From a virus (lineage: Duplodnaviria; Heunggongvirae; Uroviricota; Caudoviricetes), in IMG/VR virus record IMGVR_UViG_2778261356_000005, positions 1 through 11,676 of that record: 11,676 bases of DNA; one strand, written 5' to 3'. Shown here one piece after another: positions 1 through 3,000 of this stretch. Position 1 is the stretch's first letter. Each line of letters starts with the position of its first letter. A program made the position numbers.

Positions 1-3000
1 GTTCAGGCCCACCCCACCAGGAGGACCCGCAAAAAAGGCGGCTGGTGCCGCCTTGTTGTCAGAGTGAATCTGTCCCGCCTGATTTGACCATACCGCGATA
101 ATCCAGAGCTGCCACACCTGCATCAATACGGACTTTCCAGGCCACGCCGTCAACGATAAAACCTTCCTGCTGTTCAAGGTAAGGCTCGTCATTGCCATCA
201 AGATAAGCCACCTCGATTGTGTCCGTTCCCTGTGCGGAAAGCATGTACCATTGTTTTTCGCTGATATCATCAAGGCGGGGATCGACGATGATATCAAGTA
301 GCTTGTGATACGGGTTAAAGATCCCGCTGTTTTTATCAGCCCCGAAAGGTGCGGTTGAGTTAATCATCTGCAACGCGCGATCTTCCAGTGCTGCCGGAAC
401 TAAAAGGAATTTAGGCGCAATATTCAGCACTTCGCCATTTTTGTCCTTCTGTGTGCGCATCAGGTGACGTGCTGCACTAAGTCCCGGTGTTGTCAGTCCT
501 GCTTCAATCAGGTTGCTGTGTTTTTTGTCAAACAGCGTTATTCCGTCAGAAAGTTTTACGTTGCCTGTAAGCACCAGATTAACCAGATTTCCCACCGTTC
601 TTGATGCTGCACGGCCCATAGCCATTGGCACCGTTGATAACTGATCAAGGTCATCATTGATTATCGCCTGGCGGGTAATGCTGAAAATATTCCCGTAAGT
701 AGCCAGCGCGATGGGTTCACCGCGATCGCTGGTGGTGATGTATTTATATTCTGCCCCTTCCGGCACTTTGTTTAACGTTGAGAAGCCATTCATACCAACG
801 CGGCGGGCTTCCCGGAAGTTTGAAAGGGAACCTTTTTTCGTCCACTGGCGGAATGTTTCGCCGCTGTGCTCCCAGCCTGCAAGCACTGATTTTTCAGCGC
901 CACCAGCAAGGATATCGGTAAAATCGCTGCTGCTGTGGGTGAATGCCGCGTTTACTATCTGCGAGCGTGTGCTGTAGCTGCCCGTGCTTATACCACGATG
1001 GGTTAATGATGCCTGTGCCATATCGAAAAGGCTCATCATGGCGTAAGGATTACCGCGTTCGGCCCGTTCGTGACCAAGACGCGCATTAAGCCCCTGACGC
1101 ATGGCATCGCCGGTTATATTGCCGTTATCCGTGTACGCGTAGTAAAGATTTGCGGGGGTGGTTTTGTTTGTTGGCGTTGATTCTTTACCCATAGCGAGTA
1201 AAAGGCGTTCGCGTGCATTCTCAACGCTACATTCTGAATCCGCAAGACAACTTATAGCCAGGTCGTTATATCTTCCGTTGAAGGTGCCAAACAATTCACG
1301 GATTCCGTTAAGTCGTTCCTGTTCGCCACTGCCAGTTTTCTGGCTGATCATGCTTTTAATTTTTTCCGGCATATTTGAAAAATCTCCGATTCGTTTTGAT
1401 TCAATTCGGGCCATTGCTGTAATCGCGGGTATAACCTCATCTGCGAAGCCGTTAGCCTTACACTCATTGCCATCCATCCAGGTTTCCGCCTCCATCATTG
1501 AGGTGATCTCCTGTTTGCTCCTGCCCGTTCTTCCGGCATAGGTTTCTGCCATCGTGTCGCCCAGCTTGTCCATCAGATCAGCAAAGCGGCGAACGTCGCC
1601 CGACACTCCGGCAGTAACACCACGGGGGGCATGTATCATCATCATCGCGTTTTCAGGCATAACGATGTGATCTCCACACATGGCAATAAACGACGCCATA
1701 GAAGCCGCCATGCCTTCAATGTGTACGATTTTTTTTGCCGGATGATTTTTCAGAGCGTTATAGATAGCCAGCCCTTCAAAGATGTCGCCACCAGGTGAAT
1801 GAATGCTCAGATGGATTTCAGACACATTACCGCACGCGTTGATCTCGTCAGTAAGTGCCGATGCCTTTACACCGTACCCGCCGATCTCGTCATAAATGCG
1901 CACATGTACAACATCTGCCATAGCCTTAATGGAAAACCATGTTTTCATAGCCAGGCTCCTAACGTTGCCCTGTACCAGTATTCAACCGCGCTGCGTGTGA
2001 TTTGTCCTTTCGTGGGCACTGGCATACCCGGGTGATTATCTTTGATGAACTGCTGATAGCGTTCGATCTTCTCCATAGTTCCGGCGTCTATGTGTACCGT
2101 GGCACTTTTATCCGGCTTTCTGGTGTTGTTCTCTGGCATAAATCCGCCTCCGTTTTGATTAACGGGCATCATTATTGATCGATAAAAGTAATAGATAAAT
2201 CATTTTCTACCATAAAATCAGATTATGATTTTTCTAATTATTCTCAGAGAGGCAAAGCCATTGACGCATTTTTGCCATTGAAGCAATATTAAGACTCGTC
2301 ATCCTGGCGATAAAAACTCCTTTGTCGTGTAAAAGCGCCTCCGGTAACAGCAATCGGGGGCGCTTTTTTTGCGCCTGTTTTTTTGTAAATGCTTTCGGGA
2401 ACGCTCCAGTGATGAACAAAAAACAACCTGATTCGACACTAAAAATTTTTATTCTTCAATATATCAATAACTTATAGTGGTGGTGATGGTGCCATAAAAA
2501 TCAAAAAATGCGCCTTTTTCCGCGCCCCTCCGCCCCGTGTTCATACCCACCCCACCAGGAGGACCCGCAAAAAAGGCGCCCCTGATTCATGTTTTCGGCT
2601 GGCATGTTTGTTAAGTGATTTTGATGTATGCGCATTTATTTTCACCCCCTCGTTTAAAAAGTTTTTAGTTGTGCCTCCCCCCCCTCTACCCATCTACCCG
2701 AATGCTCATCATGTCAGTAATGGCGCGGCTTTCAGCGGGTAGATAGCTTTTGGTGCTCCTCTACCTGCCGTCTACCCTGCTACCCGAAACTGATAAAATC
2801 AGGTAGAAGAGGTAGAGAGCTTTTATTAGCCTTCTACCTGGCCCTCTACCCACTTATCATGTTGAATAATATGCGTTTATTTCATTCAGGTAGATGGGGT
2901 AGAGGGCTTTTACAAAAAATTATAAAAACGCGTCGCAATCGTCTGTTGTAATTGCGTTGGTCTGCGTTACTCCCTTAACTTTTCGCGTAATATATTCATG

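Follow-up and report, generated by a model that had tools for sequence, protein, structure and literature searches.

What does a mobile element do with a capsid gene of its own if it carries no portal, terminase, or tail gene? This question is raised by a stretch of DNA from a virus of the Caudoviricetes (11,676 nucleotides, positions 1 to 11,676 of IMG/VR record IMGVR_UViG_2778261356_000005; the window, in what follows), in which a gene at 59-1948 on the minus strand (-) encodes a 629-aa fusion of a ClpP-like prohead protease with an HK97-type major capsid protein (MCP). An original prediction made from this DNA had proposed a satellite that makes its own shell and borrows the portal, terminase, and tail of a helper, and that thereby differs from capsid-less P4-like satellites as well as from satellites with a full capsid module. 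Our analysis indicates that the element is very probably a satellite of the phage-inducible chromosomal island (PICI) type in the helper-embedded (HE-PICI) configuration, with its late zone at 59-2172. The window represents an island within the late operon of a Shiga toxin 2c (Stx2c) lambdoid prophage, and the fusion forms a satellite-specific lineage under purifying selection. The element is a further case of an arrangement that has been described, not a new element type, and what is new here is modest: the integrase lineage, the insertion site in the large terminase gene (terL), the satellite-specific fusion, and the Stx-prophage context.

The position of the island can be seen in Escherichia coli RM10466 (locus L001 in the coordinates below), to which the window is 99.6% identical, and 100% in the capsid module. 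In that strain, the composite of helper and island occupies ~55 kb between ydfJ and rspB, and the helper alone ~44.7 kb. The original prediction held that no terminase gene is present in the window, which was wrong, as its right part contains the gene for a DUF1441 protein in the small-terminase position (10502-10978 (-); Pfam) and the 5' half of a helper terL of the gpA type (9498-10505 (-); GpA_ATPase, E 3e-82), whose 335-aa product is truncated by the insertion. In the annotation of that strain, the 3' half of terL is a 'terminase gpA endonuclease subunit, missing N-terminus', and its start is 846 nt beyond the left edge (position 1) of the window. Behind it come a gpW-like gene, the portal gene, another ClpP/MCP fusion of 659 aa, and genes for head-tail and lambda-like tail proteins. 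Portal or terminase genes just left of the window had been named as something that would speak against a satellite with borrowed functions; literally, such genes are there, but they are those of the helper and lie across the attachment (att) boundary. The right flank of the window holds lysis genes, the stx2c A and B genes (L001 35260-36500), Q, and genes for replication and immunity; seen from the window's right end, stx2c A and B are ~6 kb upstream.

The island is delimited by two copies of the att core CATCCAA, one at 9501-9507 at its right end and the other at L001 17304-17310, ~857-851 nt left of window position 1, giving an island length of 10,358 bp, of which the last ~851 bp lie left of the window. 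The N-terminal half of terL ends with ...IASFWM and a stop codon right after the core (window 9498), and the C-terminal half starts with SSWMEGP... (L001 17315). To obtain an attB test sequence of 600 nt, we fused the flanks outside the island with a single copy of the core between them, and this reconstructed attB was found uninterrupted and at 100% identity in at least 10 E. coli genomes. Counted at a coverage of at least 80% in one piece, a threshold also used for the capsid module below, it occurs in 495 of 5426 genomes and is always annotated as large terminase. The contiguity of attB elsewhere is therefore direct evidence for a site-specific insertion that splits terL. The junction on the integrase side with terL is present in at least 57 genomes, and the full arrangement was confirmed in O121:H19 16-9255, SCU-171, and O157:H7 146N4. 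As the island is inserted in the terL of its helper, the dependence on the helper is strengthened. The split (window 9498-10505; L001 16185-17315) falls directly behind the GpA_ATPase match in Pfam, which covers aa 45-308 of the 335 aa, and the N-terminal ATPase fragment retains its start codon and might still be expressed from the composite prophage.

The gene content of the island corresponds to that by which Gram-negative PICIs are recognized: an integrase together with AlpA, a primase and origin, a helper-type cos site, a size within the expected ~10-15 kb (PMC6092414), and no lysis or tail genes. The tyrosine integrase is encoded at 8098-9336 (-; Pfam), and the AlpA-like protein, an excisionase or regulator with a weak HTH_17 match and a match to phrog_66 that is annotated as a helix-turn-helix (HTH) regulator, at 7881-8105 (-). 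A protein with a Bro-N domain represents the Bro zone (7240-7821 (-); Pfam), and the replication zone contains a DUF4222 protein (4671-4970 (-); Pfam) and a primase/helicase with D5_N, DUF5906, and Pox_D5 domains (2920-4674 (-)). In the direction of transcription, the order is int, alpA-like, Bro-N, Icd-like with YlcI/YnfO, small open reading frames (ORFs), DUF4222, primase, iterons, cos copy B, a 75-aa ORF, the fusion, a terminator, cos copy A, a 93-aa ORF, and att. No portal, terminase, tail, or lysis genes were found between the att sites. The genes int, alpA, and primase are co-oriented with the late genes of the helper, all being on the minus strand as are terS, terL, the portal gene, and the lysis genes.

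Helper-embedded satellites are known from the founder Eco567.11capE of E. coli NRG857c (Tommasini, Mageeney & Williams 2023, PMC10111431). In that study, four zones were distinguished in Gram-negative PICIs—Integration, Bro, Replication, and Late—and the composite of 11capE and its helper was shown to excise and replicate first, with excision of the satellite afterwards; it was also argued that the split late gene is silent until excision, that late transcription of the helper runs into the satellite, and that packaging uses a helper-like cos (PMC10111431). Our island shares the gene order and the zones with 11capE (int and alpA; Bro; DUF4222 before the primase; Late), and the two primases are 43% identical. 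Like the HE-PICIs, it splits a late gene, contains no replacement sequence in attP, and is co-oriented with the late operon; as in 11capE, terS is missing and the late zone contains a capsid homolog together with a helper-like cos. The capsid genes differ, as 11capE has homologs of lambda E and D and the island has the ClpP-scaffold-MCP fusion. A further difference concerns the integrase, which is only 25% identical to that of 11capE (86 bits, BLASTP), below the inclusion threshold of at least 400 bits in TBLASTN to the 11capE integrase that was used to search for HE-PICIs (PMC10111431); with the integrase of related chromosomal PICIs, the identity is 22%. The target site is distinct, too: the island uses a GpA-type terL at the ATPase/nuclease junction, whereas the published terminase sites of HE-PICIs are of the Terminase_1 type. 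The site list of that paper, as far as it was available to us, comprises 14 late-gene sites, with Terminase_1:132 and Terminase_1:245/246 as the terminase ones (PMC10111431), and neither a 'GpA' site name nor any of six 12-mers from the att junctions is present in the supplementary site names and att alignments that we could access. The attP of HE-PICIs was reported to contain a doubled motif, tgTGTATTGCantgTGTATTGCa, ~81 bp upstream and ~132 bp downstream of the attP center (PMC10111431). The attP junction that is expected after excision of our island contains …GTACCCTACATCCAAGAAGAAGTAAAT…, and the doubled TGTATTGC motif has no match with up to three mismatches near either att end; two matches at chance level occur elsewhere in the L001 locus. 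Apart from the general HE-PICI paper and papers citing it, we found no description of a terL-embedded element in Shiga toxin-producing E. coli (STEC) in the literature.

The three-part nature of the fusion protein, with the protease at ~aa 1-190, a linker at ~aa 191-329, and the MCP at ~aa 330-629, is well supported. The original prediction of a protease-capsid fusion of this length was confirmed by matches to Pfam, to PHROG 133 (2.4e-280), and to NCBIfam NF045540 ('ClpP-like prohead protease/major capsid protein fusion protein'; 888 bits, with a curated cut-off of 475 bits). The hidden Markov model searches that had been suggested alongside it found ClpP-like as well as capsid families, namely CLP_protease at aa 42-173 (E 4.7e-33) and Phage_capsid_4 at aa 330-623 (E 1.2e-54, profile positions 7-262 of 262), with Mu-like_gpT as an additional, weaker Pfam match, and by profile the C-terminal domain is a capsid domain. 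A search of the PDB with the single fusion sequence yielded ClpP chains only and no capsid chains; a four-sequence profile of the C-terminal 330 residues recovered the capsid chains 8rkc, 8rkx, and 9jod with E ~1e-8, of which the first two were deposited as 'Bacteriophage Mu GpT domain-containing protein' and the third as 'Major capsid protein'. At the level of sequence profiles, the Pfam matches and the PDB chains support a putative HK97-type capsid fold in this domain. In the protease part, the catalytic triad Ser/His/Asp of ClpP presumably falls on Ser83, His106, and Glu155, as judged from an alignment to the E. coli ClpP sequence, and these three residues are invariant across the aligned fusion homologs. 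The linker of ~140 aa is probably a scaffold; this putative assignment draws on the NCBI model name scaf_prot_MCP1 and on phage annotations as 'protease/scaffold protein', and the earlier statement that the module lacks a scaffold is thus probably a misreading.

The fusion is by no means a recent acquisition from the present helper. Among 50,697 phage records, the closest copy reaches 51.5% identity, and to the helper's own fusion the identity is 51-54% with saturated dS, and we therefore ruled out a recent capture. In comparison with an allele at dS 0.56, the ratio of nonsynonymous to synonymous substitution rates (dN/dS) is 0.084, with 0.11 for the protease, 0.07 for the linker, and 0.075 for the capsid part. 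Since selection acts on all three parts, a structural role of the fusion is likely. The three-part architecture is shared by phage proteins of the NF045540 family, found in Stx phages, mEp460, and phage cdtI, among others, and by a protein of the helper, but the island copy is at most 51.5% identical to the phage copies and is not preceded by a portal gene. A Pro-rich insert of ~30 aa in the linker of the helper protein is missing from the island protein, and many interface-forming blocks are invariant.

The capsid module is present in 143 of 5426 complete E. coli genomes. With ~99% identity, it also occurs in an island of E. coli Ec-042-T20-ESBL (L003 10461-19313) that has a different integrase and a RepA helicase and is located at the chromosomal clpS/cspD site; the late zone is swapped between satellites as a cassette. 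A sister lineage, with a 637-aa fusion of 64% identity, was seen only in PICI-like chromosomal islands (L006-L009, of which L006, L007, and L009 lie between cspD and clpS). In these islands, a homologous small ORF (69 aa, 38% identical to the 75-aa ORF) is upstream of the fusion, and a small-terminase-like DUF1441 gene (49% identity to that of the helper) and the 93-aa ORF (75% identity) follow it. Packaging specificity thus seems to be solved differently in close relatives, by an own terS-like gene there and by a helper-type cos here. In O121:H19 16-9255, the helper's own ClpP/MCP fusion (L004 5287-7314) contains an internal stop and is accordingly listed as a pseudogene, while that of the island (L004 11001-12890) is intact, a hint that the satellite may supply the protein in place of the helper, or that the helper is decaying.

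The bracketing of the capsid module by cos-like sites that the original prediction had described was confirmed, with copy B upstream and copy A downstream, and a third site belongs to the helper. A block of 40 to ~90 nt is shared by the three copies in one orientation, at 1-40, 2484-2578, and 11123-11217, and the core common to all of them is lambda-cosN-like, ACACGGGGCGG(G/A)G(C/G)GGCGCGG. Copy A (1-40 (-)) is cut by the left edge of the window, and the full copy is at L001 ~17990-18196. It is of the helper type: its core, ACACGGGGCGGGCGGCGCGG, is identical to that of the helper, and its cosB-side sequence is similar. Its position directly after the fusion gene is kept in L003, L004, and L007-L009. 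Copy B (2400-2578 (-), with the repeat block at 2484-2578) has a variant cosN-like core, GGGGCGGAGGGGCGCGG, and a diverged cosB-side sequence downstream, and it was not found in the related islands examined (L003 and L004). The cos region of the helper prophage itself (11123-11217 (-)) is upstream of DUF1441 and terL. Just downstream of its cosN-like core, an ATC repeat differs by one ATC unit between the window (11180-11211) and RM10466 (L001 ~29290-29371).

These findings support a part of the satellite idea and restrict another. That the element borrows helper functions agrees with the presence of a capsid gene and a helper-type cos and with the lack of an own portal, terminase, or tail, but its architecture does not differ from those of all known satellites. 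The contrast with P4-like elements on one side and full capsid modules on the other fails, as EcCICFT073, 11capE, PmCI172, and SaPIbov5 form an established third group. EcCICFT073, one of the Gram-negative cos PICIs (Fillol-Salom et al. 2018, PMC6092414; for others see also Fillol-Salom et al. 2019, PMC6739421), has the capsid homolog c1499, the decoration homolog c1500, no terS, and functional cos1 and cos2 sites, and depends on the helper terS (PMC6092414). With this PICI, our island has in common int, alpA, the primase-origin region, a capsid homolog, and two cos sites with helper-type cosN, and neither has a portal, terL, or tail gene; the dependence on the helper terminase, which in the island is read from its genes, is also common to both. 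EcCICFT073, however, resides at a chromosomal site and encodes lambda E/D-type proteins and the packaging redirector Rpp, whereas the island resides in a prophage gene and has the 75-aa and 93-aa ORFs in place of an Rpp-like HTH gene in its late zone. Furthermore, cos A keeps the helper-like cosB-side sequence, and EcCICFT073 has a different cosB. PmCI172, which also has a capsid homolog, makes small heads (PMC6092414). In SaPIbov5, the capsid homolog Ccm occupies pentamers and converts prolate heads to small isometric T=4 heads (Hawkins 2021, PMC8569155; see also Carpena 2016, PMC5052747). Both SaPIbov5 and our island are cos-packaged and combine an HK97-type capsid homolog with the lack of portal and terminase, but Ccm has no protease fusion, the host is Gram-positive, the helper has a prolate head, and the role of Ccm has been shown, whereas the island is known from its genes. 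The capsid-forming PICIs (cf-PICIs; 10.1101/2022.09.08.507074) resemble the island in that they encode a shell protein and a maturation protease. They carry terS, terL, portal, and connectors and steal only tails, whereas the island has the fusion only; between primase and att, we did not find the head and packaging set of cf-PICIs, and the coding genes there are just the 75-aa ORF, the fusion, and the 93-aa ORF. As to P4, the scanned ORFs gave no Pfam or PHROG match for Sid, Psu, or Delta, and the cos resembles that of the lambdoid helper and not the P2 type. A search of the window at the Rfam gathering thresholds gave no match, and so no P4-like CI/C4/isrK immunity RNA as reported for some PICIs.

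Work on HE-PICIs and EcCICFT073, together with the biology of lambda, suggests how such an island may function. SOS induction would start replication of the helper and Q-antiterminated late transcription, which would run through DUF1441 and the 5' half of terL into the co-oriented island. The integrase and the AlpA-like protein would excise the island, and only this excision would restore the helper terL. The helper terminase, composed of the DUF1441 protein and the restored GpA, may then cut island concatemers at cos A. The fusion, which would provide protease, scaffold, and shell, may assemble on helper portals, either alone or mixed with helper subunits, and process itself, and the portal, head-completion proteins or connectors, and tails of the helper would complete the particle. 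Most plausibly, the own capsid subunits would bias head assembly towards satellite packaging.

As to the kind of head that results, the reading with the highest probability of three, though still well short of probable, is that of the original prediction: the fusion alone would assemble on helper portals into small T=3 or T=4 heads with room for one or two 10.4-kb genomes but not for the 45-kb genome of the helper, with portal, terminase, head-completion proteins, and tail being borrowed. The fusion is self-contained, strong purifying selection acts on each of its three parts, it is far from every deposited phage copy, and a second lineage exists that is satellite-only. The 10.36-kb monomer, one island copy, corresponds to 23% of the helper genome, and a T=3 head would have ~28% of the helper capacity by T^1.5 volume scaling—a scaling of our own—and PmCI172 with its capsid homolog sets a precedent for small heads (PMC6092414). 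Several observations weigh against this assumption. Four island copies add up to 41.4 kb, or 93% of the length of the helper genome, and would fit a full-size head; both head sizes are arithmetically allowed. EcCICFT073 has a capsid homolog and uses full-size heads: all of its packaged DNA was phage-sized, and phages did not regain plaquing when c1499 or c1500 was deleted (PMC6092414). As its DNA is phage-sized and the c1499 deletion gave no relief of interference, a PICI may have a capsid gene without forming a shell of a different kind with it. The island has no portal, and a shell that is only 54% identical to that of the helper would have to nucleate on the helper portal. With regard to the satellite model as a whole, our promoter scan detected no sigma-70-like promoter on the coding strand upstream of the capsid module, and promoter-like matches in the window were fewer than expected by chance. 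An AlphaFold2 prediction of the full fusion from a 12-sequence alignment (mean pLDDT 43) left the capsid domain unmodeled and is too poor for an analysis of assembly interfaces.

The fit of four copies to the helper head could also mean that the fusion is a captured late gene that serves as a back-up or complement for helpers, and that island multimers are packaged in helper-sized heads, whichever capsid protein forms them. Late-gene capture by PICIs is documented (PMC10111431), EcCICFT073 is a precedent for such packaging (PMC6092414), and O121:H19 16-9255 combines a helper fusion that has an internal stop with an intact island copy. We nevertheless consider this unlikely, as 51-54% identity to helper copies and the lack of a closer phage relative do not agree with a recent capture, and redundancy would not be expected for a gene that is full-length in 143 genomes and has a dN/dS of ~0.08 in the compared copies. 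A somewhat lower probability is assigned to a mixed assembly, in which the island protein enters helper heads, for example in Ccm-like pentamers, and alters their size or spoils them, with interference as its main role. The active-looking protease and the full linker under selection are more than a pentamer cap seems to need, and in EcCICFT073 the deletion of c1499 occurred without relief of interference (PMC6092414), but the proteins are of the same family, with many invariant interface blocks, Ccm provides a precedent (PMC8569155), and the satellite already delays its helper through the terL split. It is extremely improbable that the locus is not a satellite at all but the remains of a prophage head region that was rearranged or duplicated, with duplicate cos and capsid sequences as assembly or recombination artifacts. 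Three cos copies and two capsid fusions in ~17 kb of one prophage may evoke this impression, but removal of the island restores terL precisely, the empty site exists in many genomes, the element has its own integrase, AlpA-like protein, primase, and origin, the late module is also found in chromosomal islands with other integrases, and the two fusions are just 54% identical.

If satellite-only small heads are taken together with the insertion site, the combined proposition is that a second integrase lineage, 25% identical to that of the founder, independently targets the domain junction of GpA-type terL in Stx/lambdoid prophages of STEC, and that the fusion builds small heads exclusively for the satellite on helper portals. 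This conjunction is doubtful, but it would have consequences. Helper embedding would be a convergent strategy and not the property of one integrase clade, the island would be an intermediate between capsid-remodeling PICIs and cf-PICIs with a whole head, and production of Stx2c phage in carriers would depend on excision of the satellite. In the Stx2c prophage and in related prophages that have the junction (O157:H7, O121:H19, and others), terL is split, and therefore no helper DNA can be packaged until excision. This requirement could lower or delay the release of toxin-converting phage, and it couples the spread of the satellite to the induction of Stx phages. The helper-embedded idea, which was defined from one integrase clade and 14 sites, gains a wider range, and with protease, scaffold, and shell in one gene, the island offers a compact test case for the role of the capsid homologs that are common in Gram-negative PICIs. 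As a discovery, it is incremental, since the architecture is published and the fusion gene is already named correctly by the prokaryotic genome annotation pipeline PGAP.

Two small ORFs accompany the fusion in the late zone. The small ORF that the original prediction had placed beside it was recovered at 1945-2172 (-); it encodes 75 aa, has 4 nt at its stop in common with the start of the fusion gene, and falls into phrog_4934, a family with no assigned function. We considered it as a remnant of a portal or gpW gene, but BLASTP detected no similarity to the helper portal, the gpW-like protein, or the terminase halves. The 93-aa ORF (phrog_1561) lies between cos A and the att site at L001 17681-17962, ~200-480 nt left of the window, and its 75% identity in the sister PICI lineage marks it as a conserved satellite late-zone protein. 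Neither of the two has a Pfam or NCBIfam match even at E = 10, and hence no Rpp-like redirector was assigned. Directly after the stop codon of the fusion gene and before cos A, an intrinsic terminator hairpin can be read from the sequence (31-52 (-); GGCGGC-ACCA-GCCGCC, then T6). With its 6-bp G+C stem, 4-nt loop, and T6, this terminator is absent from the output of the consensus scan.

Just 3' of the primase gene, a region of iterons and inverted repeats at 2600-2915 is built on CTACC/GGTAG units (direct repeats D3 and D9, inverted repeat I14). It is probably the replication origin, as its position matches that of the PICI origin in PMC6092414. Two further ORFs, one of 349 aa at 6046-7095 (-) and one of 241 aa at 3119-3844 (+), overlap genes on the opposite strand or sit in the Bro/Icd zone; RefSeq has nothing at 3119-3844 and a partial Icd-like pseudogene within 6046-7095, and both look like chance ORFs.

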